From a bacterium (lineage in GTDB: Bacteria > Bacillota > Clostridia > Oscillospirales > CAG-272), in the NCBI GenBank assembly GCA_963642885.1, contig CAVIJI010000008.1, positions 14,873 to 78,872 of the forward strand: a stretch of DNA of 64,000 bases. Reading direction: 5' to 3'. Position numbers and translations under genes: made by a program. Positions within the stretch are counted from its first letter, which is position 1. Each line of letters begins with the position of its first letter. Under the pieces are notes generated by a model, which was not told the origin of the DNA, searched no databases, and saw nothing but the letters and a program-made list of their open reading frames with translations. Of the stretch, positions 10,998 to 41,566 are shown one piece after another.

Positions 10998-11003
10998 AAA
11001 TAC

Positions 11004-11132
11004 ATCATATGACTGACGGATGATGCGGAAACACCATATATTGTGCTTTGCATAATATGGAAGAACCGCGTGGAGTATGATTGTATATTAGCCGACCGTC
11101 TGGGCACCTTCGCTCGGACGTCGGCTTTTTTA
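11004..11132 (+). promoter_or_regulatory. ZTP riboswitch (pfl motif) with intrinsic terminator
   Basis: P1 is ATCATA (11004-11009) with TATGAT. UGACUG core is identical to the consensus. Pseudoknot GACGG (11015-11019) pairs with CCGTC (11096-11100). Conserved 3' CCGUCUGGGCA (11096-11106). Terminator AGCCGAC(C)GTC...GACGTCGGCT plus T6 (11090-11132). Confidence 0.85.
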
Positions 11133-18420: not shown

Positions 18421-18636
18421 AATGTTGTACTTTTTATCATATTTTATTCTTTCTTTTCAATATATTAACACATCCGTCGGGAGAATGCAATAAGAATTAT
18501 TCGTACTCCATTATCAAACCGCACAAACGAATAATTTCACACGATAATTTTTCGACAAACAACCGATTTTTTTCAGCCGTCAATTTGTTCAAAATCGAAA
18601 TTCACCGTTTTCACGGTAAAAAAACATAAACACATA

Positions 18637-18665
18637 TTGACTTTGCGAATAATGTGTGCTAAAAT
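18637..18665 (+). promoter_or_regulatory. Promoter of the shikimate-operon leader
   Basis: TTGACT (18637-18642), 17-nt spacer, extended -10 TGcTAAAAT (18657-18665). Confidence 0.7.
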
Positions 18666-18695
18666 TAAGCCATCTTAAGCAAAGGATTAATCGTG

Positions 18696-18764
18696 ATGAA
18701 GAACAATATTGCGGCAGTTGCATATTTCTTTTTTTACTCTTACTTTTTTACCTGCAGGAAATAG
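18696..18764 (+). CDS. Candidate Phe/Tyr-rich leader peptide (22 aa) of the aro operon
   Basis: AAAGGA RBS 9 nt upstream. Reads ATG...TAG and encodes MKNNIAAVAYFFFYSYFFTCRK. 8 of 9 consecutive codons (18723-18749) are Tyr/Phe. Too short for the ORF track. Confidence 0.6.
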   Translation: MKNNIAAVAYFFFYSYFFTCRK

Positions 18765-18853
18765 TAAGAGTGTTTTTGCCGGAATTTTGTTTTTAAAACT
18801 TATATTAAAAACGGGCTTTCAGTATTAACACTGATTGGCCCGTTTTATTTTTT
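18736..18853 (+). terminator. Leader hairpins: ACTCTTAC/GTAAGAGT stem plus U-run, then a strong intrinsic terminator
   Basis: 18736-18743 is the exact complement of 18764-18771 and is followed by GTTTTTG. AAAACGGGC (18808-18816) pairs with GCCCGTTTT (18838-18846), with an inner TCAGT/ACTGA stem and a T-run to 18853. Confidence 0.7.
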
Positions 18854-18921
18854 GAGTACAACCGATTATTACCAGACTGTGAGATAAAATTTTAAAATTA
18901 AAAGAAATGAGATAAATTATT

Positions 18922-19926
18922 ATGATAGCCGTATTAAAAAGAGGAGTTTCGAAAAATCAGACAGACAGCTTCTGTGAATGGATTAAGGCTCAGGGAGTCG
19001 ATGTGCATGTATATGTCGGTGAATTCCAAACAGTTGTAGGCCTTATAGGAGATACCACAAAAATCGATGCCGAATTAATGGCAGGCCTTGATATAGTCGA
19101 GAGCGTAAAGCATATTTCCGACCCGTTCAAAAGTGCTAACCGTAAATTTCATCCCGACGACTCTATAATCGATATCTCGGGTAAAACCTCGGTAGGCGGA
19201 AAAAACTTCACGGTAATAGCGGGTCCCTGCTCTGTTGAATCCGAAGAACAAATACTCGAGGTCGCCAAAGCCGTAAAAAAATCGGGAGCAACGATACTTC
19301 GCGGCGGAGCATTCAAACCACGCACTTCTCCTTACGACTTCCAGGGCTTGCGAGCCGACGGTATAGAGCTTTTACTTGAAGCGAAAAAGGAAACCGGTCT
19401 TCCGATCGTCACTGAAATTATGAACGCAAACCACCTTCCTTTATTCGAGGATGTCGACATTATCCAGGTAGGCGCAAGAAATATGCAGAACTTCGAGCTT
19501 CTTAAGGAACTCGGTAAAATAAGAAAACCTATTTTGCTTAAGCGTGGTCTTGCCAATACGTTAAAGGAACTTCTTATGAGCGCCGAATATATCATGGCAG
19601 GCGGAAATGAAAATGTAATTCTTTGCGAACGCGGTGTAAGAACATTTGAAACATACACGAGAAACACTCTCGATCTGTCAGCTGTTCCCATGCTTCACGA
19701 GCTCTCACACCTTCCCGTTATTGTCGACCCGAGCCATGCAACGGGATTATCACGTTTGGTTAAGCCGATGGCTCTCGCAGCTGCCGCATGCGGTGCGGAT
19801 GGTATTATGATAGAGGTACACAACAATCCCAAAGCCGCTCTCTGTGACGGTGCTCAGTCATTGACACCCGAACAATTCGACGACGTAATGTGTACAACAA
19901 AACGCGTGCTTGAAGCGGTAAAGTAA
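18922..19926 (+). CDS. aroF: 3-deoxy-7-phosphoheptulonate (DAHP) synthase, type I-beta with N-terminal regulatory domain
   Basis: 334 aa. About 90 aa of ferredoxin-like N-terminal domain, then the KDO8PS-like core ([12 protein letters not shown]...[13 protein letters not shown]...VDPSH). Confidence 0.9.
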
Positions 19927-19947
19927 TCCGCATTCACCTGAATATTT

Positions 19948-21018
19948 ATGAAAATAATCAATGCCGGAAATTACAACATTATAATCGCACGCAATTCCCT
20001 CTCTCACCTCGGTGAGCACATTCAAAATGCAATCGGCACGCACGACTGCAAGGTTCTTGTTATTTCAGATGATAACGTGTATAACCTGTATCACGAAACG
20101 GTCGAAATAAGCCTTACCGAGGCGGGATTTATTCCCGTGAAAGCCTTTGTTTTCGAACATGGTGAAAAAAGCAAAAACCTTAATACACTCGGCAATATAT
20201 TAAGCCATGCCGCGAACGAAGGTCTCACTAGAGGTGATATAATCGTCGCGGTCGGGGGTGGAGTTGTAGGAGATATTGCGGGATTCGCATCTGCGGTATA
20301 TCTGAGAGGCATAAGATATGTCTCGGTACCGACTTCGATTCTCGCGGTGGTTGACTCCTCCGTTGGCGGAAAAACCGCCGTTGATATACCCGAGGGAAAA
20401 AATCTTGTCGGTGCATTTCATGAACCGTCTCTCGTTCTCAGCGACCCGACATTGTTCTCCACTCTGCCGAACGAATTTGTTTCCGATGGTATGGCAGAGG
20501 TAATAAAATACGGTGTGCTCGGAAATACCGCACTGTTTTCGCTTCTCGAACAGTCCGATAACCTGTCTTCCGACATAGACGTCATCACTGCAGAGTGCAT
20601 CAAAGACAAGGTAGATGTGGTTTCCCGAGATTATCTCGACAAGGGCGAAAGACAAAAGCTTAATCTCGGTCATACATTCGGTCACGGTATAGAAGCCCTA
20701 TCGGGGTTCACCGTATCTCACGGTCATGCCGTTGCGTCGGGAATGTATTTCATTACCGAAAGTGCTGTCAGGTGCGGATTATGCGACAGAAACAGCCTTA
20801 TCCGTCTTGAAAAGCTTCTGAAAAAATATTCGCTCGACCCGTTTATTTATCGGAAATACAAAACAGCCGATTTGATTTCAGCATCATCGCGTGATAAGAA
20901 GAGAAACGGTGATAAAATAACATTGGTTGTTCCGCGTAAAATCGGCGAATGCGATCTTATGAAAATCAATTTCGATGATATCGAAAAAGTCATTACGGGA
21001 GAGTTCCGATGGAAATAA
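19948..21018 (+). CDS. aroB: 3-dehydroquinate synthase
   Basis: 356 aa. GGGVVGDIAGFASA nucleotide-binding motif and HTFGHGIE metal ligands. Confidence 0.92.
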   Translation: MKIINAGNYNIIIARNSLSHLGEHIQNAIGTHDCKVLVISDDNVYNLYHETVEISLTEAGFIPVKAFVFEHGEKSKNLNTLGNILSHAANEGLTRGDIIVAVGGGVVGDIAGFASAVYLRGIRYVSVPTSILAVVDSSVGGKTAVDIPEGKNLVGAFHEPSLVLSDPTLFSTLPNEFVSDGMAEVIKYGVLGNTALFSLLEQSDNLSSDIDVITAECIKDKVDVVSRDYLDKGERQKLNLGHTFGHGIEALSGFTVSHGHAVASGMYFITESAVRCGLCDRNSLIRLEKLLKKYSLDPFIYRKYKTADLISASSRDKKRNGDKITLVVPRKIGECDLMKINFDDIEKVITGEFRWK

Positions 21019-22262
21019 CACTCCTTTCGCCGAAACCGCACGGTACAATCAGTGCTATCGCTTCAAAATCGTATGCACACAGAATACTTATCTGTGCTGC
21101 TCTTGCCGATAAACAAACCATTATAAAATGCTCTTCACGTTTGAGTGATGATATTGAAGCAACTGTATCATGTCTACGCTCACTCGGAACCGCGATCGAT
21201 TGTACCGACGAAGGATTTATTGTAACACCGATAAAAACAGCTCCGACCGAAGCTATCCTTCACCCTCGTGAATCGGGTTCGACTTTACGCTTTCTGATTC
21301 CGATTGCCGCGGCTCTCGGAACCGAAACCGAATTCGTAACGGAAGGAAGACTTTCGTCTCGTCCTCTCTCGCCTCTCACAGATGAGCTTGAGAAACACGG
21401 TGCGCGATTTACATCGAACCCATTAAAAATCAAAGGCAAAATCACACCGGGCACATATACCATGAACGGTTCCGTCTCATCTCAATTCACGACGGGATTA
21501 ATGCTTTCCCTCTCCTATTTCGACACGAAAAGTGTTATAATATTGGAAGGAAATATCGAGTCGAAACCTTATATCGACTTAACAATACAGGTGCTTGCGT
21601 CATTCGGTGTAATTGTTTCCGAAGAAGAACATGCTTACACCGTGTGCGGCAAACCACGTTCGCCTTCGATTACAGCTGTTGAAGGTGACTGGTCAAACGC
21701 GGCGTTCATGCTTGCCATGGGTACCATTGCGGACAACACACACAATGACGGAATAACCGTTACGGGTTTAAACACGGCATCGGCTCAAGGTGACCGTAAA
21801 ATAGTCGATATTCTTTCCGAATTCGGAGCGAATGTGGCAATCGGCAACAGCAGTGTTACCGTGAAAAAATCAAAGCTTCACGGTATTGAGCTGAACGCAT
21901 CGGATATACCCGATCTCGTACCGATAATGTCGATTGTGGCCATGTCAGCCGAGGGAGACACCGTTATACGGAATTGCGGAAGACTCAGGTTCAAGGAAAG
22001 TGACAGAATCGAATCTATATGTGAGATGATAACAGCTTTCGGAGGAAACATTTCGGTAAATAACGATGTAATAACGATCCGCGGCGGAATAACCGAAAGA
22101 AACAATATCGTCATAGACTCATTCAACGACCACCGAATTGTTATGGCGGCGGCAGCAGGTTCAATACTCGCCGATTCACCCGTTACAATTAAAAATTGTG
22201 AAGCGGTTTCGAAATCATATCCGAGCTTTTTCGATGACTTCGGAAAGCTCTGTATTAATTGA
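21009..22262 (+). CDS. aroA: 3-phosphoshikimate 1-carboxyvinyltransferase (EPSP synthase)
   Basis: 417 aa. SKSYAHRILICAAL, GSTLRFL, and the DHRIVMAAA C-terminal motif. Overlaps the aroB stop by 10 nt. Confidence 0.92.
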   Translation: MEITLLSPKPHGTISAIASKSYAHRILICAALADKQTIIKCSSRLSDDIEATVSCLRSLGTAIDCTDEGFIVTPIKTAPTEAILHPRESGSTLRFLIPIAAALGTETEFVTEGRLSSRPLSPLTDELEKHGARFTSNPLKIKGKITPGTYTMNGSVSSQFTTGLMLSLSYFDTKSVIILEGNIESKPYIDLTIQVLASFGVIVSEEEHAYTVCGKPRSPSITAVEGDWSNAAFMLAMGTIADNTHNDGITVTGLNTASAQGDRKIVDILSEFGANVAIGNSSVTVKKSKLHGIELNASDIPDLVPIMSIVAMSAEGDTVIRNCGRLRFKESDRIESICEMITAFGGNISVNNDVITIRGGITERNNIVIDSFNDHRIVMAAAAGSILADSPVTIKNCEAVSKSYPSFFDDFGKLCIN

Positions 22263-22338
22263 AAGCATAGTTTCTTCGATTTTCAACCTTGAAATCAGTG
22301 TAAATTAATTTATTCTGCGTATCCTACAGGAGGATTAT

Positions 22339-23433
22339 ATGACATCGTACGGAAAAAACATTAAAATAGAGGTTTTCGGCGGGTCTCATGACCCCGAGAT
22401 AGGTGCAACAGTATGCGGAATCCCCGCGAATATATCGGTTGACACCGACAAGCTTCTGACTTTTATGCAAAGGCGAGCTCCCGGACAGGGTAAATATTCA
22501 ACAACACGCAAGGAAAGTGATATTCCGATATTTATAAGCGGTCTGGACGGTAATAACATTACTACCGGTGAAACACTCAAAATCATCATAAAAAACGAGG
22601 ATGCGCATTCCGATGAATACCTGAAAATCGTCTCTAAGCCACGTCCGTCACACGCCGATTATCCCGCGATAATCAAATCGGAAGGAAAAGCGGATCTTCG
22701 CGGAGGCGGTCATTTTTCCGGTAGACTGACGGCTCCTATATGTGCTGTCGGAGGCATACTCAAGAATGAGCTCGAAAAGCGCGGTATTTATATTTGCGCT
22801 CATATTGAATCCATAGGAAGCGCTCTTGATTACCGTTTTGATCCCGTAGATGTGTGCCTTGACGATTTCAACACCGTTCTCTCGAACAGTCTTCCTGTTC
22901 TCAATTCAAAATCAGCCGATAACATGCTGAAAATCATAGACGGGGCGAAAATGCAGCAGGATTCCGTAGGCGGAGTTATCGAATGTGCCGTCATAGGATT
23001 ACCTGTGGGTCTCGGTGAGCATATGTTCTGCGGTATGGAGTCGCGTATTTCCGCCGCGATGTTTTCGATTCCCGCAGTAAAGGGAATCGAATTCGGAGCG
23101 GGCTTCGCTTCCACAGATATGTACGGCTCGGAAAATAACGATCCATTCTACTATAACAACGGTGTTGTTCGCACAAAGACCAATAACTGCGGCGGAATTC
23201 TCGGAGGAATGACAGACGGTATGCCTCTCATATTCCGATGCGCCGTAAAACCGACACCCTCGATAGGACTGCAGCAGGAAACAGTCGATCTCACAACACA
23301 CGAAAATACCGTAATAAGCGTAGAAGGACGTCATGATCCGTGTATTGTTCCGCGCGCGGTACCCGTTGTGGAAGCTATGTGCGCGGCGGCAATATTCGAC
23401 ACGATGCTTGATAACGGAGAAACAGAAAAATAA
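22339..23433 (+). CDS. aroC: Chorismate synthase
   Basis: 364 aa. GGSHDPEIG, RPSHAD and GGGHFSGR motifs. Confidence 0.92.
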   Translation: MTSYGKNIKIEVFGGSHDPEIGATVCGIPANISVDTDKLLTFMQRRAPGQGKYSTTRKESDIPIFISGLDGNNITTGETLKIIIKNEDAHSDEYLKIVSKPRPSHADYPAIIKSEGKADLRGGGHFSGRLTAPICAVGGILKNELEKRGIYICAHIESIGSALDYRFDPVDVCLDDFNTVLSNSLPVLNSKSADNMLKIIDGAKMQQDSVGGVIECAVIGLPVGLGEHMFCGMESRISAAMFSIPAVKGIEFGAGFASTDMYGSENNDPFYYNNGVVRTKTNNCGGILGGMTDGMPLIFRCAVKPTPSIGLQQETVDLTTHENTVISVEGRHDPCIVPRAVPVVEAMCAAAIFDTMLDNGETEK

Positions 23434-23452
23434 TCTGAGGTTATCGATAATA

Positions 23453-24697
23453 ATGAAAGAATCAAACGAACTAAGATGCGGTCTTATAGGCAAACCGCTC
23501 GGACACAGTTATTCACCGCAAATACATTCACACCTCGGCGATTATGAATACCGGCTTATAGAGCTTGACGAAGACGATGTCGGCACATTCATAAAAGCAG
23601 GTGATTACGATGCTCTGAATGTAACAATCCCATATAAGAAAACAGTCATGCGGTATCTTGACGTTATATCACCCGAAGCTTTGAGAATCGGCTCGGTTAA
23701 TACCGTAACTCACATGCGGGATGGCAGGCTCAAAGGTGACAACACAGATTACTACGGTTTTTCTTACATGATTGACAAAGGCGAAATTAATATCGGCGGT
23801 AAAAAAGTGCTTATTCTCGGCAGCGGCGGAGCTTCTATGACCGCACGCACGGTAGCGGCTGACAGAGATGCGAGAGAGGTTGTAATCATCTCCCGTCACG
23901 GTAAGGATAACTACGACAACATTGCCGTTCATTTCGACTGTGATATTATTATCAACACCACTCCCGTGGGAATGTTTCCGAACAACGGTGATTCTCCGGT
24001 ATCTCTCGACTGTTTTCCGAACTTGTGCGGTGTTGTCGACATGATATACAATCCTTCGAAAACCGCTCTGATTTTGGAAGCCGAAGAAAAAGGTATACCG
24101 TGTATTTCGGGATTGTGCATGCTTGTCGCTCAGGCAAAAGCAGCATCAGAGCTTTTTACGGGACGAAAAATCGAAAACGAAATCATAGACAAAATTACAT
24201 CTTTGATTGAATTCGAGACAAAAAATATCACGCTGATCGGGATGCCGGGTGTCGGTAAAACAACAAACGGCAAATTAATCGCCGAAAAGCTCAATCGTAA
24301 ATTCATAGATATTGACGAGGAAATCGTAAAGCGAAGCGGTACGACGATTCCGCTGATATTCTCGGAGCACGGAGAAGAATATTTCAGAAATATCGAGCAC
24401 AATGTCCTCGCTGAGTACTCTAAAATGTCGGGATTGGTAATTTCATGCGGCGGAGGCGTGGTCACACGCCACGACAACTGCAACCTAATAAAGGAAAACA
24501 GTACCGTAGTTTTTCTCAGGCGTGATGTCTCCTCCCTGCCGAAGGAAGGAAGACCTGTTTCTCTCGCAAATGATCTGCAGTCTCTGTATGCAAAACGTCT
24601 TCCGTTATATATGTACGCGGCAGATGTGATATATGATATATACGGAGATTCCGATACTACATCCGATGATATAATCGATATTTTAAAGAAGCGCTGA
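23453..24697 (+). CDS. aroE/aroK: Bifunctional shikimate dehydrogenase / shikimate kinase fusion
   Basis: Start moved from 23333, which overlaps aroC, to ATG 23453. N-terminal AroE (GLIGKPLGHSYSPQIH, NVTIPYK, GSGGAS). C-terminal AroK with Walker A GMPGVGKTT and DIDEEI. Confidence 0.85.
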   Translation: MKESNELRCGLIGKPLGHSYSPQIHSHLGDYEYRLIELDEDDVGTFIKAGDYDALNVTIPYKKTVMRYLDVISPEALRIGSVNTVTHMRDGRLKGDNTDYYGFSYMIDKGEINIGGKKVLILGSGGASMTARTVAADRDAREVVIISRHGKDNYDNIAVHFDCDIIINTTPVGMFPNNGDSPVSLDCFPNLCGVVDMIYNPSKTALILEAEEKGIPCISGLCMLVAQAKAASELFTGRKIENEIIDKITSLIEFETKNITLIGMPGVGKTTNGKLIAEKLNRKFIDIDEEIVKRSGTTIPLIFSEHGEEYFRNIEHNVLAEYSKMSGLVISCGGGVVTRHDNCNLIKENSTVVFLRRDVSSLPKEGRPVSLANDLQSLYAKRLPLYMYAADVIYDIYGDSDTTSDDIIDILKKR

Positions 24698-24718
24698 CTC
24701 AGTGAGGATAATGCAACA

Positions 24719-25156
24719 ATGAAATTACTTATAATAAACGGTCCGAACATAAATATGCTCGGGATAAGAGAGCCTGATATATACGGAAAGCAGGATTACA
24801 ATACCCTGCTATCGTTAGTGGACAAAACCTGCTCCGAAAACAATATCGAATATGAATGCTATCAATCGAATCACGAAGGTGACATTGTCGATAAAATACA
24901 AGCGGCATACAACAGATTCGACGGAATAGTCATAAATCCCGCGGCGTATACCCACACAAGTGTTGCTATACTCGATGCATTAAAAGCGGTAAATATTCCG
25001 ACTGTCGAGGTACATATTTCCGATGTCAACAATCGAGAACAGTTTCGTCGGATTTCTTATGTTTCTCTTGCGGCCGAGAAAACCATTTCGGGACACGGAA
25101 TCGAAGGATATTCGGAAGCGATAATATGGCTGAAGGATTATATTTCGCGGTTATGA
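24719..25156 (+). CDS. aroQ: Type II 3-dehydroquinate dehydratase
   Basis: 145 aa. LIINGPNINMLGIREPDIYG...QSNHEGDIVDKIQ...VINPAAYTHTSVAI. Confidence 0.93.
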   Translation: MKLLIINGPNINMLGIREPDIYGKQDYNTLLSLVDKTCSENNIEYECYQSNHEGDIVDKIQAAYNRFDGIVINPAAYTHTSVAILDALKAVNIPTVEVHISDVNNREQFRRISYVSLAAEKTISGHGIEGYSEAIIWLKDYISRL

Positions 25157-25237: not shown

Positions 25238-25547
25238 ACGGTATCATTTTGTCTCATCGATATCACACGGCATCAAATCGTGCTTTTTTGCGGATATTAC
25301 CAAATTGTCAGTTCGCAAAATTCTTAATAATGACACAAAATAACTACAATAGACAATATGTACAAAAATGACTGTTATTTTTGTATTACTAAAAATGAAT
25401 AAATTTATGTTGTTCACAATTATATAATATATTTTTAAAATAATTCATGTTATAATAATCGTTGATAACTATGTATTTGAGCAAAGCAAAGGAGGAAGGC
25501 AGATTTTGAGCTGCGAGTATGCGGTTTGAATACTGTCGTTTTCAGTT

Positions 25548-30253: not shown

Positions 30254-31498
30254 ATGAAAATAACACCTGTAAAAGGCACTTCGGATTACCTTCCGAATGA
30301 AGTTCTCATACGCGACTATCTCCAGAACAGCATTCTCGAAACATATCGTTCGTGCGGCTTCGAGAGAATATCAACACCTATAATCGAAGACATCGAAAAT
30401 CTCGATAAAAGCGACGGCGGTGAAAATCTCAACTTAATATTTAAAATCATGAAGCGCGGCGAGAAGCTCGAAGAAGCTCTTTCGTCTGATAATGTTAATG
30501 AAAAAGAAATAGCCGACATGGGTTTGAGATACGACCTCACTCTTCCTCTGACACGCTACTACTCCAATAACCGTGCCAAGCTGCAAAACCCTTTCAAAGT
30601 TATTCAGATTGACAGAGTATATCGTGCGGAACGCCCGCAGAAAGGCAGAATGCGCGAGTTTTACCAGTGCGATATCGATATAATCGGCTCGGATTCATGG
30701 ACAGCTGAAGTCGAACTCATCACCACTACCGCAAAAGCACTCCACAACATCGGCTTCACCCGTTTCGGAATAAGGATTAACGACCGCAGACTGCTCAAGG
30801 CCATTATAATGGGCGCGGGATTTTCCGAAGCTGACTGTGACTCGATATGCATTTCACTCGACAAACTCGACAAGATAGACTTTGACGGAGTCAAAAACGA
30901 ACTCCTTGAAAAAGGATTCGACCGCAATAAAACAGAAACATTGATAAGCTCTATAAGTGTTTCTCCGTTCACGCTCGATGATGCTGAAAAGCTCTGCGGC
31001 AAGCTCGATTGTATCGACAATCTCAGACACATCATGGATGCCGCAAATTCTCTCGCCGACGGATTCGAGGTAACATATGATATGACACTCGTACGCGGTC
31101 AGGGTTACTACACCGGCACCGTATTCGAAATTTCGAGTCCCGATTTCAAGGGTGCTATCGGCGGCGGCGGAAGATATGACAACCTTATAGGTAAATTCCT
31201 CGGTGAAAGCATTCCGGCTGTAGGTTTTTCAATCGGCTTCGAGCGGCTTTGCGCTATTCTTCTCGAACAGAATTATAAAATTCCCACTCAGAAGAAAAAA
31301 TTTGCCGTTATCTACAATGACGATGAATTCATTGATGCTCTTAAGTATGCGGATTCTCTTCGCGGTGAATATGATGTCACGCTTTGTCAATCCGTCAAAA
31401 AGCTCGGTAAACTTTTCTCAAAGCTTGAAGAAAACGGTTTCTGCGGCTGTCGCGTAATGTCACAGGAAGAAGTTAAGTATTTCGAAAATAAAATTTAA
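30254..31498 (+). CDS. hisS: Histidine--tRNA ligase (class IIa)
   Basis: 414 aa. Motif 2 region GRMREFYQCDIDIIG, GGGRYDNLIGKF, and a C-terminal anticodon-binding-like domain. Confidence 0.8.
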   Translation: MKITPVKGTSDYLPNEVLIRDYLQNSILETYRSCGFERISTPIIEDIENLDKSDGGENLNLIFKIMKRGEKLEEALSSDNVNEKEIADMGLRYDLTLPLTRYYSNNRAKLQNPFKVIQIDRVYRAERPQKGRMREFYQCDIDIIGSDSWTAEVELITTTAKALHNIGFTRFGIRINDRRLLKAIIMGAGFSEADCDSICISLDKLDKIDFDGVKNELLEKGFDRNKTETLISSISVSPFTLDDAEKLCGKLDCIDNLRHIMDAANSLADGFEVTYDMTLVRGQGYYTGTVFEISSPDFKGAIGGGGRYDNLIGKFLGESIPAVGFSIGFERLCAILLEQNYKIPTQKKKFAVIYNDDEFIDALKYADSLRGEYDVTLCQSVKKLGKLFSKLEENGFCGCRVMSQEEVKYFENKI

Positions 31499-31544: not shown

Positions 31545-31833
31545 TTTACAATGCGATGATGGAAAAAAAGTAGCATGAGGTACTCTGCAGAGAGTCGGTG
31601 GTTGGTGAAAACCGATGAAGTTAACTTGTGTGAATACATTTCCGTAGCAGCACACCGAAGGGTTGAATATCTTGTATAACCTGTGTAGGCTGTGACGTCT
31701 GATATACGTTACAATATCGGGGCATTATTTATTAAGTGCCTGCTGAGGCTGTACTTGTAAAAGTGCGGTAAATTGAGGTGGTAACACGGTACATCCGTCC
31801 TCTGCTTGATTAGTCGGCAGAGGACTTTTTTTG
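31545..31833 (+). promoter_or_regulatory. T-box riboswitch, Tyr specifier (UAC)
   Basis: GCGATGA K-turn start. AGAGAGU AG-bulge. Distal loop UUGGUGAAAACC. Specifier loop GAA-UAC-A (UAC at 31635-31637). T-box sequence GAGGUGGUAACACGG. Terminator GTCCTCTGC (31798-31806) / GCAGAGGAC (31818-31826) plus T7. Confidence 0.9.
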
Positions 31834-31908
31834 TTCTCCGCCGATCTAAGAATCATTTCTTATTTTAGAAGGAGGCATAGCCGTACACATAGCAGTACGG
31901 CTGAGATT

Positions 31909-33543
31909 ATGGTAATTACCGATCTTCTCGAAAAAAATGCAAAGCTGTATCCTGATGAAGTGGCATTGGTGGAAATAAACCCCGCAAATCAGCCCGATGT
32001 TAATATTACCTGGCGTGAGTATTCATTAATCGAAGCGACACCGGGTGAAAAATACCGCCGTGAAATGACATGGAAAGAATTCGATACGAAAGCAAATCGT
32101 TTTGCGAATCTGCTGAAAACACGTGGTGTTGAAAAGGGCGACAAGGTTGCCATTTTACTGATGAACTGTCTTGAATGGCTTCCGATTTATTTCGGAATAC
32201 TCAAAACAGGTGCTCTTGCGGTTCCGATGAACTATCGTTACTCTTCAGATGAAATCAAGTACTGTACCGAATTAGCCGATGTATCCGTTCTTGTTTTCGG
32301 TCCGGAATTCACAGAACGTGTATCCACGGTATTCCTCGATATGCCGCTTGTCAAGGATTACTTTTTTGTAGGTAAAAATCCGCCCGAATTCGCGGGAAGT
32401 TATGACAAGCTTGTTACATACTGCTCATCAACAGCTCCCGCTGTCGATTTGAGTGAGGACGACGATGCTGCGATTTATTTTTCATCAGGTACTACAGGAT
32501 TTCCTAAGGCTATACTTCATGCCCATCGTTCTTTAATCAATTCATGTCGTACCGAACAGAATCATCATGGTCAAACCAGAAATGATGTTTTCTTATGTAT
32601 ACCTCCGCTTTATCATACAGGTGCTAAGATGCATTGGTTCGGCAGTTTAATCAGCGGAAGCCGTGCCGTAATTCTCAAAGGTGTATCTCCCGAGTGGATA
32701 CTGCGTACCATATCAAACGAAAAAGCTACGATTGTTTGGCTTCTTGTTCCGTGGGCTCAAGATATACTCGATGCCATTGACAGAGGCGACATTAAGCTCG
32801 AAGATTACCGTCTGTCGCAGTGGAGACTCATGCACATAGGAGCACAGCCCGTACCGCCGTCACTTATTAAACGTTGGAAAGCGATTTTCCCTCATCATCA
32901 ATATGACACGAATTACGGTTTGTCCGAATCTATCGGCCCAGGATGTGTTCATCTCGGAGTTGACAATATCGACAAGGTTGGTGCCATAGGAGTTCCCGGT
33001 TACCTTTGGGAAGCTGACATTGTAGGATCCGACGGACACAGCTGTGCTGACGAAGAAGTCGGTGAATTGATTGTAAAAGGCCCCGGTGTGATGAAATGTT
33101 ACTATAAAAACGAGACCGCTACAAACGAGATTCTGAAAAACGGTTGGCTATATACGGGTGATATGGCCAAGCGTGACAGCGAAGGATTTATTTACCTTGT
33201 AGACCGTAAAAAAGATGTAGTTATCACCGGCGGTGAAAATCTTTATCCCGTACAAATCGAAGATTATTTAAGACAAAACGATAAAATCAAAGATGTGGCT
33301 GTCATCGGGCTGCCCGACACGCGGCTCGGTGAAATAGCGGCGGCAATAATTGAGCTTAAACCCGACGTCACCGCTACCGAAGACGAAATTAATGAATTCT
33401 GTCTCGGTCTGCCGCGCTACAAACGCCCGAAAAAGATTATTTTCGCGGACGTTCCACGCAATCCCACAGGCAAAATAGAAAAACCTAAGCTCAGAGAGAT
33501 GTATTGCGGTGTTTCTCTTGTTGAAGCTCAAACAACAAGATAA
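31909..33543 (+). CDS. AMP-dependent acyl-CoA synthetase/ligase (class I adenylate-forming enzyme), substrate unknown
   Basis: Start moved to ATG 31909, because track start 31831 lies in the terminator U-run. SSGTTGFPKA, YGLSES, GWLYTGDMAKRDSEGFIYLVDRKKD and PTGKIEKPKL motifs. Confidence 0.85.
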   Translation: MVITDLLEKNAKLYPDEVALVEINPANQPDVNITWREYSLIEATPGEKYRREMTWKEFDTKANRFANLLKTRGVEKGDKVAILLMNCLEWLPIYFGILKTGALAVPMNYRYSSDEIKYCTELADVSVLVFGPEFTERVSTVFLDMPLVKDYFFVGKNPPEFAGSYDKLVTYCSSTAPAVDLSEDDDAAIYFSSGTTGFPKAILHAHRSLINSCRTEQNHHGQTRNDVFLCIPPLYHTGAKMHWFGSLISGSRAVILKGVSPEWILRTISNEKATIVWLLVPWAQDILDAIDRGDIKLEDYRLSQWRLMHIGAQPVPPSLIKRWKAIFPHHQYDTNYGLSESIGPGCVHLGVDNIDKVGAIGVPGYLWEADIVGSDGHSCADEEVGELIVKGPGVMKCYYKNETATNEILKNGWLYTGDMAKRDSEGFIYLVDRKKDVVITGGENLYPVQIEDYLRQNDKIKDVAVIGLPDTRLGEIAAAIIELKPDVTATEDEINEFCLGLPRYKRPKKIIFADVPRNPTGKIEKPKLREMYCGVSLVEAQTTR

Positions 33544-33616: not shown

Positions 33617-35098
33617 TTATTCCATGTTGCTGTATTCCATAAGATACTCATCAACCTCGACGGCACATGCCCTTCCCTCGGCTATCGCCCATACTACCAA
33701 CGATTGCCCGCGATGAGCGTCTCCTGCGGTAAACACCTTAGGTACCGATGTTGAATACTTTCCGCTGTCACTGATAAGACAACCACGTGCATTTTTTTGA
33801 ACTCCGAAAGCCTCTGCAACATAGCTCTCACATCCCACAAAACCTGCGGCAATGAGTAAAAGATCACACGGTATTGTTTCCTCGCTTCCGCTAACCTCTT
33901 CCATAATTGTCCTGCCGCTTGATTCGTCCCTTTTCATATTGAGCTTAACAGTCCGCAAAGCCGATATGTGCCCGTTTTCATCGGATAATATCTCCTTAAC
34001 CGTTGTCTCATATATTCTCGGATCACGACCGAATACAACAGCCGCTTCTTCCTGCCCATAGTCATTCTTACAGATTCGCGGCCATTGCGGCCATGGATTA
34101 CCGTCGGTACGTTTATCGGGCAGTTTTTTCATCATTTCAAGCTGAACGACAGATGCGCATTTTTGCCGTATAGCGGTTCCGACACAATCATTTCCCGTGT
34201 CTCCGCCGCCTATTACAACAACATTCTTTCCGAACGCATCAATACCGAAATTTTCTCTGTCACCTATGATTTTTTCGGTCGCGGATGTGAGATAATCTAC
34301 GGCGAAATATATACCTTCCGAATTTCTGCCCGGTACACTGATATCTCTTGCGGTTTTTGCACCGCAAGAAAGTACTACAGCATCGTAATCGCTAAGTATA
34401 TCGGAAGCAGAAACATTAACGCCGACATTGGCACCGCATATAAATTCGACACCTTCTTCACGCATCATATTGACACGTCTCTCGATGACACTCTTATCCA
34501 ATTTCATATTGGGAATGCCGTACATCAATAGTCCGCCGGGCTTAGCTGCTCGCTCAAATACCGTGACCGAGTGTCCTCTTTTATTAAGTCTTTCGGCAAC
34601 AGTCAGACCCGCAGGACCCGAACCGATTACGGCTACTTTCTTACCGCTTCGAACTTTCGGAATCTCGGGCTTTATCCATCCGTTTTTATAACCTTCTTCT
34701 ATAACGGCAAGCTCGTTGTCGTGGATGGTAACAGCATCTCCGTTCATCCCGCATGTACATGCGGCTTCGCATAAAGCCGGGCACACACGTCCCGTGAATT
34801 CGGGAAAGTCATTGGTCTTCAACAGTCTTTTCAATGCCTCCTGCCAATCTCCGTTGTATACAGCATCATTCCACTCGGGAATTAAATTGTGCAAAGGACA
34901 TCCGCTGAACATCCCACCGTATAAAGTACCGGATTGACAGAACGGTACCCCGCAATTCATACATCTCGAAGCCTGTTCACGACGCTGTACCGAATCCAAA
35001 ATAGCGTGAAATTCGTTGAAATTATTAATTCGTTCCGACACAGGAATACATGGAGATGATATTCTGTTAAACTCTAAAAATCCCGTAGGTTTTCCCAT
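33617..35098 (-). CDS. gltD: Glutamate synthase (NADPH) small subunit
   Basis: 493 aa. N-terminal Fe-S Cys cluster (CMNCGVPFC...CP) and the dinucleotide fold VAVIGSGPAGL. Confidence 0.9.
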   Translation of the reverse strand: MGKPTGFLEFNRISSPCIPVSERINNFNEFHAILDSVQRREQASRCMNCGVPFCQSGTLYGGMFSGCPLHNLIPEWNDAVYNGDWQEALKRLLKTNDFPEFTGRVCPALCEAACTCGMNGDAVTIHDNELAVIEEGYKNGWIKPEIPKVRSGKKVAVIGSGPAGLTVAERLNKRGHSVTVFERAAKPGGLLMYGIPNMKLDKSVIERRVNMMREEGVEFICGANVGVNVSASDILSDYDAVVLSCGAKTARDISVPGRNSEGIYFAVDYLTSATEKIIGDRENFGIDAFGKNVVVIGGGDTGNDCVGTAIRQKCASVVQLEMMKKLPDKRTDGNPWPQWPRICKNDYGQEEAAVVFGRDPRIYETTVKEILSDENGHISALRTVKLNMKRDESSGRTIMEEVSGSEETIPCDLLLIAAGFVGCESYVAEAFGVQKNARGCLISDSGKYSTSVPKVFTAGDAHRGQSLVVWAIAEGRACAVEVDEYLMEYSNME

Positions 35099-35111: not shown

Positions 35112-38100
35112 TTATTTAATAGTTTCGGCAAGATAAAATGCTTTTAATTTAGCCTGTTCATAAGGAATCCCCTTCTCCTCGAGTTTTCCTATGCATATCA
35201 TCATTTTACGATAATCCTCGGGTATAATTTTTTTGAAATTCGGTAAAAACTCATCAAAGTGTTCGAGTACTTTTTTTCCTAAAGCTGAACCTGTCTCCGC
35301 AACATGATTAGCAATCAATTTTTTCAGTTCATCGGCATCATGCTGCTCCGTTATCTCTGTCATCGTCACCATTTGTTTGTTCAGCTTAAGGTATAAATCG
35401 TGATCCGTATCGAGAACATACGCTATACCACCGCTCATTCCGGCCGCGAAATTTTTACCTGTTTTTCCCAAAATCACAGCGCAGCCACCTGTCATATATT
35501 CACATCCGTGATCTCCGCAGCCTTCGACTACGGCAACAGCACCCGAATTCCTTACGCAGAATCTCTCACCTGCGATACCGTTAATATACGCCTCACCGCT
35601 TGTGGCTCCGTATAACGCAACATTACCTATAATAATATTTTTTTCTGCCGCAAAGCTCGAACCATCTTCGGGTTTTACCGTAAGTTTTCCCCCGGATAAA
35701 CCTTTTCCGAAGTAATCGTTTGAATCACCTTTAAGCTTGATTGTCAAACCCTTCGGCAGGAATGCTCCGAATGATTGACCGCCACCGCCGTTTGCATTTA
35801 TGATATATGTGTCGTCTGTTAAAGTATTTCCGAATCTTTTTGTAATAACAGAGCCGAGTATGGTCCCGAAAGTGCGGTTCGTACTTGATACCTTAATGTT
35901 TGTTTCATGTTTTCGGTTGCTCATGAAATATTTTTCGAATTCGGGAATCAAAATCGATTCGTCTATTGTTTTTTCGAGTTCGAAATTATACTTTGCGCTG
36001 TTATCAAAATGATAATATCTTCCGTTGCTCTCCCCCATAAGGCTCGTTAAATCAATCGTTTCAGCACGATGAGTTATCAGCTTGCTGCGGACACGTATTT
36101 TTTCGGTATGTCCCACAAGTTCGTTAACGGTATGAACTCCGAGCTTTGCCATGATTTCACGCAGCTCTTCGGCGATAAATTTCATAAAATTCATAACATA
36201 TTCGGGCTTTCCGCAAAAACGCTTTCTGAGCTCGGGATTTTGCGTTGCTATACCTACGGGACATGTATCGAGATTGCACACACGCATCATTACGCAGCCC
36301 ATCGAAACAAGCGGTGCGGTAGCGAATCCGAATTCTTCGGCGCCGAGTATGCAAGCTATGGCTACATCTCTTCCGCTCATCAGTTTTCCGTCTGTTTCAA
36401 GTCTTACTCTTTCCCTCAGTCCGTTTTTTACAAGTGTTTGATGAGCTTCCGCAAGTCCCAATTCCCACGGTAAACCCGCATTATGTATAGAGCTTCGCGG
36501 AGCGGCACCTGTTCCGCCGTCGTATCCCGAAATCAGAACCACTTCTGCTCCTGCCTTCGCTACGCCTGACGCTATTGTACCGACTCCCGCTTCCGATACA
36601 AGCTTTACCGATATGCTCGCGTCACGATTAGCGTTTTTTAAATCAAATATCAATTGTGCAAGATCTTCTATCGAATATATATCATGATGCGGCGGAGGTG
36701 AAATCAGTGAAACACCTGGTGTAGAGTAACGTGTTTCCGCAATCCACGGATAAACCTTTTTTCCGGGTAAATGTCCCCCTTCTCCGGGCTTAGCGCCTTG
36801 TGCCATTTTTATCTGTATTTCCTTTGCGCTGCATAAATATTCGCTTGTCACTCCGAATCTTCCCGATGCAACCTGCTTTATGGCACTGTTTTTAATTGTC
36901 CCGAATCTTGCGGGATTTTCACCGCCCTCTCCCGAATTTGATTTACCTCCGAGTGTATTCATGGCTATAGCCATGCATTCATGGGCTTCCTGCGATATCG
37001 AACCGTATGACATTGCACCCGTTTTAAATCTCTTGACTATTTCGGAAACAGGTTCGACCTCATCAAGCGGTATTCCTCCGTTTTCATCCCATACAAACTC
37101 CAAAAGGCCACGTAATGTATGAGGCTTTCTTTCGTCATCAACCGCAGCGGTATATTCTTTAAATCTTTCGTATGAACCTGTGTGAGTAGCTTCGCGAAGT
37201 GCTATGATTGTCTGAGGGTTATACATATGATCCTCGGCATTATTATTCGAACGAAGCTTATGTATTCCCGCGCTGTCCGCTGTAGTATCAACACCGAGTC
37301 CGAGAGGGTCAAATGCGTGATTATGGCGCCACTCTACACCCTCGTTTATCTCCGCAAGACCTATACCCTCAACAGGACTTACAGTATTCGTGAAATACTT
37401 GTCGGTGACTGATTTACATATGCCCACAGCTTCGAATATCTGTGCCGATTGATATGACTGAAGTGTCGATATACCCATTTTAGATGCTATTTTAACTATA
37501 CCGTGAAGGATGGCGTTGTTATAATCTTCTATGGCAGTGTGATAATCCTTATCAAGTCTGCCGCTGTCGATAAGCGAAGCAACACACTCCTGTGCAAGAT
37601 ACGGATTTATCGCACGTGCTCCGTAACCGAGCAATGTCGCAAAATGATGTACATCTCTCGGCTCACCGCTTTCAAGAATTATGGAAACCGATGTACGCTT
37701 TTTGGTTCGAATGAGGTACTGCTCCATTGCGGAAACAGCCAGAAGTGACGGTATTGCGACATGATTTTCGTCTATACCTCTGTCTGATAAAATCAAAATA
37801 TTGGCTCCGTCACGGTATTCTCTGTCGCATTCAACGAAAAGTCTGTCTAATGCTTTTTCCAAAGAAGTATTCTTATAATACAGCAATGATACCGTAGATA
37901 CTTTAAATCCCGATTTGTTCATAGAGCGTATCTTCATTAAATCTACGGACGTCAGTATCGGATTGTTAATCTGAAGCACACTGCAGTTATCGGGCTTTTC
38001 TTCCAGTAAATTTCCATCTGAACCGACATAAACCGTAGTATCCGTTACTATTTCCTCACGAAGTGAGTCTATAGGAGGATTGGTCACTTGAGCGAAAAGC

Positions 38101-39638
38101 TGCTTGAAATAATTGAATAAGGGCTGATGTTTCTCGGATAATACCGCTAACGGAACATCACATCCCATTGAAGCAGTTGCTTCGATTCCGTTCTTCGCCA
38201 TCGGTAAAATTGCGTCGTTTATGTCTTCGTATGTATAACCGAATACTTTACACAGTCTGTCTCTTTCCTGTGCGGTATACATGGAAACCTTTTTATTCGG
38301 TACCGAAAGTGATGAAAGTGAAACAAGATACCTGTCAAGCCATTCACCGTATGGTTTACGTGAAGCATAATATTCCTTGCATTCTTCGTCGGATACAATT
38401 TTTTTATTAACCGTATCTACAAGAAGCATTTTACCGGGTTCCAAACGTGACTTGCATACAATATCATCTGACGGTATTTCGAGAACTCCGACTTCAGATG
38501 AAAGGATAAGCCTTCTGTCTTTTGTCACATAGTATCTTGCCGGTCTTAATCCGTTTCTGTCGAGCACAGCCCCTATAATATCACCGTCGGAAAATAAAAT
38601 AGCTGCGGGACCATCCCACGGTTCCATCATGGTTGCGTAATACCTGTAAAGGTCTCGCTTCTCACGGGTCATGTCCGTACTGTTTTTCCACGGTTCGGGA
38701 ATCGTTATCATTACGGCAAGAGGCAACGGAATACCGTTCATTTCGAGAAATTCAAGTGTATTGTCCAGCATAGCGGAATCCGAGCCGGATGCGGATATAA
38801 CCGGATATACCTTGTCCAAATCCGATTGCATCAGTGTCGAACGCATTGTTTCCTCACGTGCGAGCATTCTGTCCGCATTGCCTCTGATTGTATTGATTTC
38901 ACCGTTATGCAAAATAAGGCGATTCGGGTGGGCTCTCTCCCAACTCGGTGTTGTATTGGTAGAAAATCTGGAATGAACCATAGCGATTGCACTTTCGTAT
39001 GATTCGTCCATAAGATCAAGATAAAACCTTCTGAGCTGCTTTACGAGGAACATGCCTTTGTATACAACCGTACGTGACGACAATGAACATACATATGTAT
39101 TGTCATTGCTCTGCTCGAAAACTCTTCGTATCACATACAGCTTTCTGTCAAAATCAAGTCCGCGTGATATATTCGACGGTCGTTCAACAAAACATTGAGC
39201 AATGAACGGCATGGTATTCTTGGCTTTTTCGCCCAAAATCGTGCTGTCGGTCGGAACATCTCTCCAACCGAGCAGCCGTACACCTTCCTTATCGCAAATA
39301 ATTTCAAACATTTTTTTAGCTTGACGTCTTGCAAGAGTATTTTGCGGAAAGAAAAACATACCGACACCATAGTCACGGCTATTCGGCAAATCGAATCCCA
39401 GAGGTTTAACCGCTTTCGAGAAGAAAGTATGTGAAATCTGCAAAAGAATTCCGACTCCGTCACCTGTCTCCCCTGTTGCGTCCTTACCCGCTCTGTGCTC
39501 TAACTTTTCAACAATCGACAATGCGTCATTCACTATCGAATAAGATGCAGTGCCGTCTATGCTGACTACCGCACCTATACCGCATGCATCATGTTCATAG
39601 CTCTCACTGTATAATGTTTTTTGCTGACCATCCGTCAT
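35112..39638 (-). CDS. gltB: Glutamate synthase large subunit
   Basis: Start moved to ATG 39638; track start 39710 overlaps asnB. MTDGQQKTLYSESYEHDACGIG carries the Ntn amidotransferase Cys. FMN and 3Fe-4S regions are present. About 1508 aa. Confidence 0.93.
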   Translation of the reverse strand: MTDGQQKTLYSESYEHDACGIGAVVSIDGTASYSIVNDALSIVEKLEHRAGKDATGETGDGVGILLQISHTFFSKAVKPLGFDLPNSRDYGVGMFFFPQNTLARRQAKKMFEIICDKEGVRLLGWRDVPTDSTILGEKAKNTMPFIAQCFVERPSNISRGLDFDRKLYVIRRVFEQSNDNTYVCSLSSRTVVYKGMFLVKQLRRFYLDLMDESYESAIAMVHSRFSTNTTPSWERAHPNRLILHNGEINTIRGNADRMLAREETMRSTLMQSDLDKVYPVISASGSDSAMLDNTLEFLEMNGIPLPLAVMITIPEPWKNSTDMTREKRDLYRYYATMMEPWDGPAAILFSDGDIIGAVLDRNGLRPARYYVTKDRRLILSSEVGVLEIPSDDIVCKSRLEPGKMLLVDTVNKKIVSDEECKEYYASRKPYGEWLDRYLVSLSSLSVPNKKVSMYTAQERDRLCKVFGYTYEDINDAILPMAKNGIEATASMGCDVPLAVLSEKHQPLFNYFKQLFAQVTNPPIDSLREEIVTDTTVYVGSDGNLLEEKPDNCSVLQINNPILTSVDLMKIRSMNKSGFKVSTVSLLYYKNTSLEKALDRLFVECDREYRDGANILILSDRGIDENHVAIPSLLAVSAMEQYLIRTKKRTSVSIILESGEPRDVHHFATLLGYGARAINPYLAQECVASLIDSGRLDKDYHTAIEDYNNAILHGIVKIASKMGISTLQSYQSAQIFEAVGICKSVTDKYFTNTVSPVEGIGLAEINEGVEWRHNHAFDPLGLGVDTTADSAGIHKLRSNNNAEDHMYNPQTIIALREATHTGSYERFKEYTAAVDDERKPHTLRGLLEFVWDENGGIPLDEVEPVSEIVKRFKTGAMSYGSISQEAHECMAIAMNTLGGKSNSGEGGENPARFGTIKNSAIKQVASGRFGVTSEYLCSAKEIQIKMAQGAKPGEGGHLPGKKVYPWIAETRYSTPGVSLISPPPHHDIYSIEDLAQLIFDLKNANRDASISVKLVSEAGVGTIASGVAKAGAEVVLISGYDGGTGAAPRSSIHNAGLPWELGLAEAHQTLVKNGLRERVRLETDGKLMSGRDVAIACILGAEEFGFATAPLVSMGCVMMRVCNLDTCPVGIATQNPELRKRFCGKPEYVMNFMKFIAEELREIMAKLGVHTVNELVGHTEKIRVRSKLITHRAETIDLTSLMGESNGRYYHFDNSAKYNFELEKTIDESILIPEFEKYFMSNRKHETNIKVSSTNRTFGTILGSVITKRFGNTLTDDTYIINANGGGGQSFGAFLPKGLTIKLKGDSNDYFGKGLSGGKLTVKPEDGSSFAAEKNIIIGNVALYGATSGEAYINGIAGERFCVRNSGAVAVVEGCGDHGCEYMTGGCAVILGKTGKNFAAGMSGGIAYVLDTDHDLYLKLNKQMVTMTEITEQHDADELKKLIANHVAETGSALGKKVLEHFDEFLPNFKKIIPEDYRKMMICIGKLEEKGIPYEQAKLKAFYLAETIK

Positions 39639-39660
39639 ATCTCTACCCTTCCCACCGATT

Positions 39661-41251: not shown

Positions 41252-41509
41252 GTTTAAGCACAACTTTATTGAATTTCAGGACGAACTGTGCTGTCCGCGG
41301 TGCCACCTGTATTATCCGCATAGGATCTCTTTACTGCTCATTATTTAAGCATTGCAAATTAACGCTTTGCACACGCCGTACCTACTGTCATATATATGAG
41401 TTCGGTTTGGGGCTCGAAGGTGTTATTCGCGCAGGCATCGGAATACGTTTCTCACTGTCACGTACTCACTGTGTCCTCTGTATCTGCGGTACTTCTCCTC
41501 GTCACAGCC
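41252..41509 (-). promoter_or_regulatory. T-box riboswitch, Asn specifier (AAC)
   Basis: Minus-strand reading: GUGACGAGGAGAAGUA stem I base; specifier loop CGAAU-AAC-A (AAC at 41424-41422); T-box AGGUGGCACCGCGG (41308-41295), where UGGC predicts discriminator G. No U-tract terminator is visible before the GGAG SD at 41251-41248. Confidence 0.8.
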
Positions 41510-41566
41510 TTTTTTCACTTTATTTTTTAATTATAATTGTTTTATTCTCGGTAAGCCGATTCTACT

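Follow-up and report, generated by a model that had tools for sequence, protein, structure and literature searches.

The regulatory repertoire usually ascribed to Firmicutes consists of T-boxes, riboswitches and RNA-binding proteins. Ribosome-mediated attenuation through a short leader peptide has nonetheless been described in this phylum for histidine, in leaders before hisS paralogues or hisZ in bacilli (PMC2965389), and for leucine, in the Leu-rich attenuator peptide of Staphylococcus aureus ilvBNC (PMC5794164). For aromatic amino acids, the nearest descriptions come from other lineages. Corynebacterium glutamicum aroF is preceded by an F-Y-F leader (aroR), where, as summarized in PMC11802643 (citing Neshat 2014), stalling under Phe limitation raises transcription; this attenuator had been predicted in PMC4046766. 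The uORFC-13-1 motif comprises 24 sequences from Acholeplasma and unassigned environmental DNA and is found exclusively 5′ of aroF (Brewer et al. 2021, PMC8632094). Here, we report a leader upstream of the shikimate operon aroF-aroB-aroA-aroC-aroE/aroK-aroQ in a 64,000-nucleotide (nt) stretch of a CAG-272 genome (Clostridia, Oscillospirales; GenBank assembly GCA_963642885.1, contig CAVIJI010000008.1, positions 14,873 to 78,872), referred to below as the window. Judging from its sequence and that of its relatives, the aroF leader is very probably a four-segment ribosome-mediated transcription attenuator sensing charged tRNA-Phe and tRNA-Tyr. The parts of an attenuator are present: a 5′-leader open reading frame (ORF) with a Shine-Dalgarno (SD) sequence and ATG, a cluster of codons for the end products, a terminator, a mutually exclusive antiterminator, and placement of the regulatory codons in segment 1. 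A preliminary description of this DNA had proposed that stalling at Phe/Tyr codons controls a terminator before the aroF operon, a proposal to which conservation and compensatory stem changes lend support. Its view that leader-peptide control is rare in Firmicutes is fair as a generalization but not absolute, given the cases in bacilli, S. aureus, Lactococcus and Acholeplasma (PMC2965389, PMC5794164, PMC8632094). In the literature on Clostridia, Ruminococcus and Lachnospiraceae, no description of the aroF leader was found.

Features of the leader and operon lie on the plus strand. Transcription is predicted to depend on a sigma-A type promoter at 18637-18665 (−35 element TTGACT at 18637-18642, 17-nt spacer, extended −10 element TGcTAAAAT at 18657-18665), which was also recovered by a promoter consensus scan (10/12 matches plus the TG). 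The transcript would start at around 18672, i.e., ∼24 nt 5′ of the leader ATG. This ATG (18696) lies 31 nt past the −10 element, and the SD sequence AAAGGA (18681-18686) stands 9 nt ahead of it. The ORF (MKNNIAAVAYFFFYSYFFTCRK; 18696-18764) has 22 codons followed by TAG (18762-18764), and its codons at 18723-18749 read TAT TTC TTT TTT TAC TCT TAC TTT TTT (Y F F F Y S Y F F). Eight of these nine codons are aromatic, and across six frames of the window no other small ORF has such a run. The run has no Trp codons, which suggests that Phe and Tyr alone tune the common pathway. We propose 18723-18749 as the sites at which ribosomes short of Phe-tRNA or Tyr-tRNA would stall. Within the run, the octamer ACTCTTAC (18736-18743) is exactly complementary to GTAAGAGT (18764-18771), with GTTTTTG directly 3′ of the latter. 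The 189-nt leader as a whole folds more stably than shuffled sequences (z = −5.8), and it ends in an intrinsic terminator (18808-18853) formed by segments 3 and 4. In this terminator, AAAACGGGCU.UCAGU (18808-18823) pairs with ACUGA..GGCCCGUUUU (18830-18846), followed by AUUUUUU at 18847-18853 (−20.6 kcal/mol, z = −6.75); within it, AAAACGGGC (18808-18816) pairs with GCCCGTTTT (18838-18846), and ATTTTTT runs up to 18853. Direct reading of the sequence and, for the promoter, the consensus scan agreed with the preliminary description on the promoter TTGACT-17-TGcTAAAAT, the AAAGGA 9 nt before the ATG, the 22-codon ORF with its Tyr/Phe codons and stop, the octamer complementarity with its GTTTTTG, and the strong hairpin and T-run ahead of aroF, for which the distance to the aroF ATG at 18922 is 69 nt.

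To compare this leader with those of relatives, aroF loci were fetched from species-representative genomes (80) and metagenomes (80), together with three exact-protein loci. A leader ORF was registered if it started with ATG, had 8-80 codons and contained ≥6 aromatic residues in a 9-codon window. Such ORFs were present in 59/81 upstream regions of the first batch, compared to 0/81 of their reverse complements and 1/405 shuffles. Over all loci with ≥200 nt of upstream sequence (n = 153, Clostridia genomes and metagenomes), 93 carried a leader ORF, and in 85 of these 93 a stable hairpin and U-run lay between the ORF and aroF. Conservation of the ribosome-binding site, ATG, in-frame F/Y run and terminator, put forward earlier as a check on the proposal, therefore extends to most related aroF loci. 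Typical leader peptides among the relatives are MKNMLFAFAYFYFYFYFKV..., MSLFVFAAAYFYFYFIMTRSKSDLCCK and MKRNIFAAEYFYFYFINKS. Their runs are composed of 321 F, 296 Y and 2 W residues, start at about codon 9-10 and have a median length of eight codons (range 4-13), with both F and Y occurring in 81 of 86 non-identical leaders. An SD core was found a median of 8 nt ahead of the ATG in 67 of 86 leaders (78%; random positions, 13.6%), and, of 83 leaders, 86% had a promoter scoring ≥10/13 no more than 90 nt from the ATG (shuffles, 2.8%), with the −10 element a median of 34 nt 5′ of the ATG. The occurrence of runs consisting almost exclusively of F and Y, and of SD sequence and promoter at fixed distances, argues for translation of the leader ORF. 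The order of F and Y, run length, N-terminus and C-terminal tail vary freely among relatives; variability of the peptide outside the run and of F/Y order within it suggests sensing at the level of codons rather than a specific functional peptide. In the genome set, the nearest relative at species level bears the label Ruminococcus sp. (AroF identity of 84%), and the metagenome scan yielded no closer relatives than the genomes save one partial match of 91%. A second metagenome-assembled genome of the same species as the window differs by a single base in the leader (N4D), with a G-U pair retained. The aro promoter is conserved in a further locus, L001. An Rfam scan of 20 aroF loci without the leader found no element replacing it.

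The leader RNA offers two mutually exclusive sets of pairings. Segment 1 (18699-18749) contributes the 5′ arms of a long hairpin, with an outer arm at 18699-18717 corresponding to codons 2-8 and an inner arm at 18735-18749 inside the F/Y codons. Segment 2 (18758-18796) can pair with segment 1, 18758-18772 with the F/Y codons and 18776-18794 with codons 2-8, or can pair through 18772-18796 with segment 3. In minimum free energy folds, the 1:2 hairpin (18699-18749 with 18758-18794) has an energy of −29.7 kcal/mol (z = −4.6), and the octamer pairing noted above is the core of its inner stem. In per-locus folds of the relatives, the outer 1:2 stem joins UUUGCAGCAG, in codons just 5′ of the run, with UUUUGCUGCAAA, and in the inner stem UACUUUUACUUU, which is made up of the F/Y codons, pairs with AAAGUAAAAGUG. 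The first hairpin (ACUCUUAC with GUAAGAGU), which the preliminary description had considered as perhaps the regulated element, is instead the inner part of this longer 1:2 structure. The 1:2 hairpin, with its outer stem joining codons 2-8 to 18776-18794, would act as an anti-antiterminator and possibly as a pause.

The preliminary description had also reported that no convincing antiterminator could be derived, yet one exists between 18772-18796 and 18805-18829. It was found by folding the transcript from just past the run to the terminator loop without the terminator 3′ arm, because during transcription this arm has not yet been made; equilibrium folds with the ribosome footprint masked always retained the terminator and did not reveal the antiterminator. 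In the window, GUU/UGC/GGAA/UUUGUUUUUAA (18772-18796) pairs with UUAAAAACGGG/UUUC/GUA/AAC (18805-18829), at −12.3 kcal/mol (z = −1.6 to −2.0). This 2:3 helix takes up 14 of 16 nt of the terminator 5′ arm and so excludes the terminator. A 2:3 helix recurs in nearly all loci (mean z of −1.95 across 52 loci), with a consensus of (G)AUUUUUGCUGC of segment 2 paired with GCAGUGAAA(A)UC of the terminator 5′ arm, and lineage-specific variants pair GAUUUGUGC with GCACAAAUC or AAUACGGUUAU with AUGACCGUAUU.

Covariation in these pairings was assessed by alignment-free and alignment-based comparisons. Duplex energies were computed for cognate segments and for all non-cognate combinations of 79 non-identical leaders. 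Cognate partners paired more stably for 1:2 (−22.8 vs −16.4 kcal/mol; P = 3 × 10−12), 2:3 (−14.6 vs −10.8 kcal/mol; P = 4 × 10−12) and 3:4 (−22.0 vs −9.2 kcal/mol; P = 1 × 10−14), while the control pairings 1:3, 1:4 and 2:4, which are subject to the same phylogeny, showed no difference between cognate and non-cognate partners (P = 0.4 to 0.9). RNAalifold applied to a MAFFT alignment recovered only the terminator, because variable spacers misalign; per-sequence folds were instead projected onto alignment columns and pairs were counted. In a plain MAFFT alignment of 37 leaders, positions of the 1:2 plus 3:4 structure were 74.8% paired (36-49% with slid partners) and those of the 2:3 helix 77.1% paired (29-55% with slid partners), and covariation exceeded all 500 shuffles both for 1:2 plus 3:4 and for 2:3. 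Compensatory changes, proposed at the outset as a further check, were found in the 1:2, 2:3 and 3:4 stems. One 2:3 pair is G-C in 13 cases and U-A in 11. The second position of an aromatic codon is paired as U-A in 14 cases and A-U in 7, so that segment 2 carries a matching change where F is swapped for Y (UUU to UAU). Comparison of the window with L001 shows a change from G-C to A-U in the outer 1:2 stem, and the 3:4 terminator covaries strongly. Complementarity within each of the three pairings is thus specific to lineage.

A covariance model (R1) was built from the 1:2 and 3:4 pairings only. It matched 96 of 164 sources (65 among the first 100, 31 among the other 64), and each match was single, on the plus strand and directly 5′ of aroF. 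The sole match in the window was to 18681-18847 (84.4 bits, E = 1 × 10−13). In the alignment of 65 sequences to R1, 1:2 and 3:4 were 81.7% paired, and 2:3, to which the model had not been fitted, was 70.2% paired (31-56% with slid partners); the covariation seen in the MAFFT alignment held in this alignment too. The leader family so defined (96/164 sampled aroF loci) is spread over Oscillospiraceae, Ruminococcaceae, Acutalibacteraceae, Lachnospiraceae and Anaerovoracaceae. Five further loci (L005, L056, L060, L072 and L075) have F/Y leader ORFs (e.g., MKKVFNYYFYNFYFFRPY) with their own terminator and antiterminator that R1 missed; these are a diverged sub-family with other stem sequences. Among the carriers of the leader are three cultured isolates, Hominicoprocola fusiformis CLA-AA-H269, Pseudoflavonifractor sp. 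AF19-9AC and Angelakisella massiliensis Marseille-P3217T (L011, L024 and L052). Six contigs binned as Bacteroidaceae, Alloprevotella or Lentisphaerae (L021, L032, L034, L047, L055 and L070) encode Clostridia-like AroF (65-72% identity) and are probably mis-binned; one of them, L034, bears the leader (37.7 bits).

These parts suggest the following sequence of events. As RNA polymerase moves through the next ∼90 nt, a ribosome would translate the 22 codons of the leader. Under a shortage of Phe-tRNA or Tyr-tRNA, this ribosome would stall at 18723-18749 and cover segment 1, leaving free the antiterminator-forming part of segment 2 (18772-18796), which lies ≥20 nt past the run and beyond the footprint. 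Free segment 2 would pair with segment 3 (18805-18829) once the latter emerges, and with the terminator 5′ arm thereby occupied, the polymerase would read into aroF through aroQ. When both Phe and Tyr are plentiful, the ribosome would reach the UAG at 18762 and then leave. Segment 2 would then be held by the stronger 1:2 hairpin (−29.7 kcal/mol) or, in relatives with a long ORF, masked by the ribosome, allowing the 3:4 terminator to form and transcription to end near 18853. The sequence parts, their conservation and their lineage-specific complementarity are seen in the data, whereas translation of the ORF, stalling, timing relative to the polymerase and the sign of regulation are inferred. 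The 1:2 hairpin and U-tract may, in addition, hold the polymerase in a pause until the ribosome has drawn level.

The spacing of the segments is compatible with this scheme. Assuming a ribosome leading edge ∼13 nt from the A site, the antiterminator bases of segment 2 begin a median of 18-20 nt past the last aromatic codon, and a ribosome on that codon covers ∼3-4% of them. The position of the stop codon is bimodal, dividing the leader ORFs into long and short forms. In long-form leaders (L006, L014, L019, L025, L038, L043 and others) the ORF crosses segment 2, and the peptide tail (...SKSDLCCK and similar) is merely the UUGCUGC stem read as codons. On reaching the stop codon, a ribosome covers 97% of segment 2 in 45 long-ORF leaders, whose stop lies beyond segment 2, and 41% on average in 34 short-ORF leaders, including that of the window, whose stop lies in the hairpin loop.

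Several points weigh against attenuation of this kind. It assumes coupling of ribosome and polymerase in Clostridia, and in Bacillus subtilis transcription is reported to outrun translation (reviewed in PMC7858274). With the stop codon of the window in the hairpin loop, a terminating ribosome masks only ∼17% of segment 2, and therefore termination must depend mainly on the strong 1:2 hairpin forming again quickly once the ribosome has left. The outer 1:2 arm (18699-18717), lying behind the stalled ribosome, could in principle re-pair unless a second ribosome covers it. The antiterminator of the window is weak, consisting mostly of A-U and G-U pairs, and 16 of 200 shuffles fold as well. Lastly, equilibrium folds still favor the terminator when the ribosome footprint is masked; the model therefore relies on the order of co-transcriptional folding.

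The conserved helices could also be explained without any role for translation, if the leader were a structured RNA sensed by a trans-acting factor (a TRAP-like or PyrR-like protein, uncharged tRNA or a small ligand) that stabilizes 1:2 or the antiterminator, with the ORF incidental. Since the F/Y codons double as the 5′ arm of a helix that is conserved and covaries, their conservation is indeed partly structural, and T-boxes are common in Firmicutes, two of them occurring elsewhere in the window. We nevertheless consider this explanation unlikely. The SD sequence, ATG and open frame across the run are kept at fixed spacing; the arm consists of U-[U/A]-[U/C] triplets in frame with the ATG, which a helix alone would not require; and variation is limited to compensated changes that preserve F or Y. 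The leaders lack conserved unpaired loops or bulges hinting at a ligand pocket or a tRNA-binding platform, and no Rfam family, T-box included, matches the leader. At E ≤ 10, a search of 18421-18960 against Rfam (release 15) returned no leader family (Phe, Leu/Phe, Trp, His, Thr or others), only L20_leader at 17 bits (gathering score, 58.7). At gathering score, the search of the whole window placed nothing on the aroF leader and T-box and ZTP elements elsewhere. Identity of the leader with a T-box was rejected on these grounds (RF00230 matches only 31547-31805 and 41274-41514). Readings of it as a riboswitch or a site of TRAP-like repeats were rejected as well. A different division of roles, in which the first small hairpin (18735-18772) with its GUUUUUG is the regulated terminator and the downstream hairpin a constitutive or secondary stop, would account for the 5′ arm lying in the regulatory codons, where a ribosome in the run would melt it, and for the U-run 3′ of it in the window and most relatives (AUUUUUGCUGC). 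The stem is A-U rich, though, and was not called terminator-like by the scan; it is nested in the longer 1:2 hairpin; antiterminator pairing explains the U-tract; and covariation of the downstream terminator and antiterminator with segment 2 would be needless if the first hairpin were the switch. We regard this division as quite improbable, a pausing role for the first hairpin being more likely than a terminating one.

The leader peptide is very hydrophobic and aromatic, and both arrest peptides and trans-acting leader peptides are known (e.g., peTrpL; PMC7298713). Action through the nascent chain or free peptide, be it an arrest peptide sensing an amino acid or translation stress or a hydrophobic membrane peptide, rather than through tRNA charging, is hard to reconcile with F/Y order, run length (4-13 codons), N-terminus and C-terminal tail that vary freely and with long-form tails that are merely translated RNA stems, and induction by free Phe or Tyr would have the wrong sign for a biosynthetic operon; we judge this explanation very unlikely. 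As TTT and TAT codons arise readily in T-rich intergenic DNA, the ORF might also have arisen by chance in a T-rich leader before a terminator that is unregulated or regulated otherwise. This has next to no probability in view of the counts of 59/81 leaders against 0/81 on the reverse strand and 1/405 shuffles, of an ORF unique in the 64-kb window and of its conservation across families of Clostridia. The strand and shuffle controls, the cognate-pairing test and the covariance-model matches effectively refute a chance ORF.

The operon that attenuation at this leader would control extends from 18922 to 25156 and, by NCBIfam assignment, comprises aroF (18922-19926), aroB (19948-21018), aroA (21009-22262), aroC (22339-23433), an aroE/aroK fusion (within 23333-24697) and aroQ (24719-25156). 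All of its genes passed or approached NCBIfam cutoffs, and together they encode the complete chorismate pathway with all seven steps, in agreement with the operon content given in the preliminary description. Shikimate dehydrogenase (aroE) and shikimate kinase (aroK) are joined in a single ORF (23333-24697, plus strand), the true start of which is probably near 23440, since with its listed start the ORF would share 100 nt with aroC. A terminator-like site follows the operon at 25266-25292. AroF of the window bears an N-terminal FXD regulatory domain (Pfam). In the Thermotoga enzyme, the FXD domain confers feedback inhibition by Tyr/Phe; if it does the same here, allosteric and transcriptional control would answer to the same two amino acids. 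The upstream neighbor of the leader is a divergent recG (NCBIfam), and the leader terminator therefore cannot end an upstream gene, an interpretation that is ruled out. The minus strand carries a terminator-like hairpin and T-run (18620-18601) in the interval from the recG start (18420) to the aro promoter, which may be a chance occurrence because the count of such sites is not above that in shuffles.

Other regulatory RNAs in the window belong to known families. A full-length T-box (31547-31805, plus strand; 109.7 bits) lies 3′ of hisS (ORFs at 30254-31498 and 31831-33543 flank it) and directly 5′ of an ORF resembling AMP-dependent acyl-CoA ligases (best NCBIfam match below cutoff), an unusual T-box target. 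A second T-box (41274-41514, minus strand; 110.7 bits) is followed on the same strand by asnB and then the glutamate synthase large and small subunits (ORFs at 39661-41241, 35112-39710 and 33617-35098). With this T-box before asnB, the genome therefore uses T-boxes beside the putative leader-peptide attenuator. A ZMP/ZTP riboswitch aptamer is located at 10999-11112 (plus strand; 46.5 bits, above gathering score).

If the aroF leader acts as proposed, a testable regulatory mechanism can be assigned to the shikimate operon of many abundant, mostly uncultured gut Clostridia, whose aromatic amino acid metabolism feeds host-relevant metabolites. An attenuator that needs the ribosome to match the polymerase over ∼150 nt would also be a natural system in which to study coupling in Clostridia. 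In terms of annotation, dozens of small "hypothetical" ORFs and unannotated aroF leaders could be relabelled, as R1 detects them specifically. It is possible, and we suggest it tentatively, that the leaders represent an undescribed and very widespread family through which coupled attenuation is mainstream in gut Clostridia, with dual sensing of Phe and Tyr acting on the shikimate pathway and the 1:2 hairpin and U-tract enforcing coupling by a pause, in a phylum whose RNA polymerase is held to run ahead of the ribosome.

Compared to T-boxes, the aroF leader shares the choice between terminator and antiterminator in a 5′ leader and the tRNA charging ratio as signal, but a T-box binds uncharged tRNA directly and does not need translation. 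The His leaders of bacilli and the Leu leader of S. aureus are alike in being amino-acid-specific, ribosome-mediated attenuators of Firmicutes; they respond to other amino acids, precede other operons, belong to another order (Bacillales) and are unrelated in sequence. The uORFC-13-1 motif resembles the leader in its candidate upstream ORF with promoter, ribosome-binding site, start codon, U-rich Phe codons and adjacent terminator, identified computationally (PMC8632094). By description, which was the only basis of comparison (the 160 fetched aroF loci include no Acholeplasma locus), a Phe-codon ORF and adjacent terminator before aroF fits the anatomy of the window; uORFC-13-1 differs in being described with "at least one" Phe, and its description mentions no antiterminator model, Tyr codons or Clostridia. 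C. glutamicum aroR-aroF, again compared by description and as far as the summarized accounts go, likewise has a leader peptide with Phe and Tyr codons 5′ of the DAHP synthase gene aroF. Its host is an Actinobacterium, it has F-Y-F only as opposed to a run with a median of eight codons, and aroR is reported there to respond to Phe and not to Tyr.

The architecture is most readily compared to that of Escherichia coli pheL-pheA (and trpL and hisL), with which the aroF leader shares a short SD-led ORF, regulatory codons in segment 1, 1:2 and 3:4 pairings exclusive of 2:3, and a terminator before the first biosynthetic gene, with stalling expected to lead to readthrough. In contrast to pheL-pheA, to which it has no similarity in sequence or by Rfam model, the aroF leader would sense two amino acids through interleaved Phe and Tyr codons and control not a terminal branch but the common shikimate pathway; its host is a Clostridium-class Firmicute, and its 1:2 hairpin is unusually long, enclosing almost the whole ORF. 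A Phe/Tyr attenuator before aroF would be, in sum, a new case of a known mechanism with near precedents, represented here by a large family that is broad within gut Clostridia.

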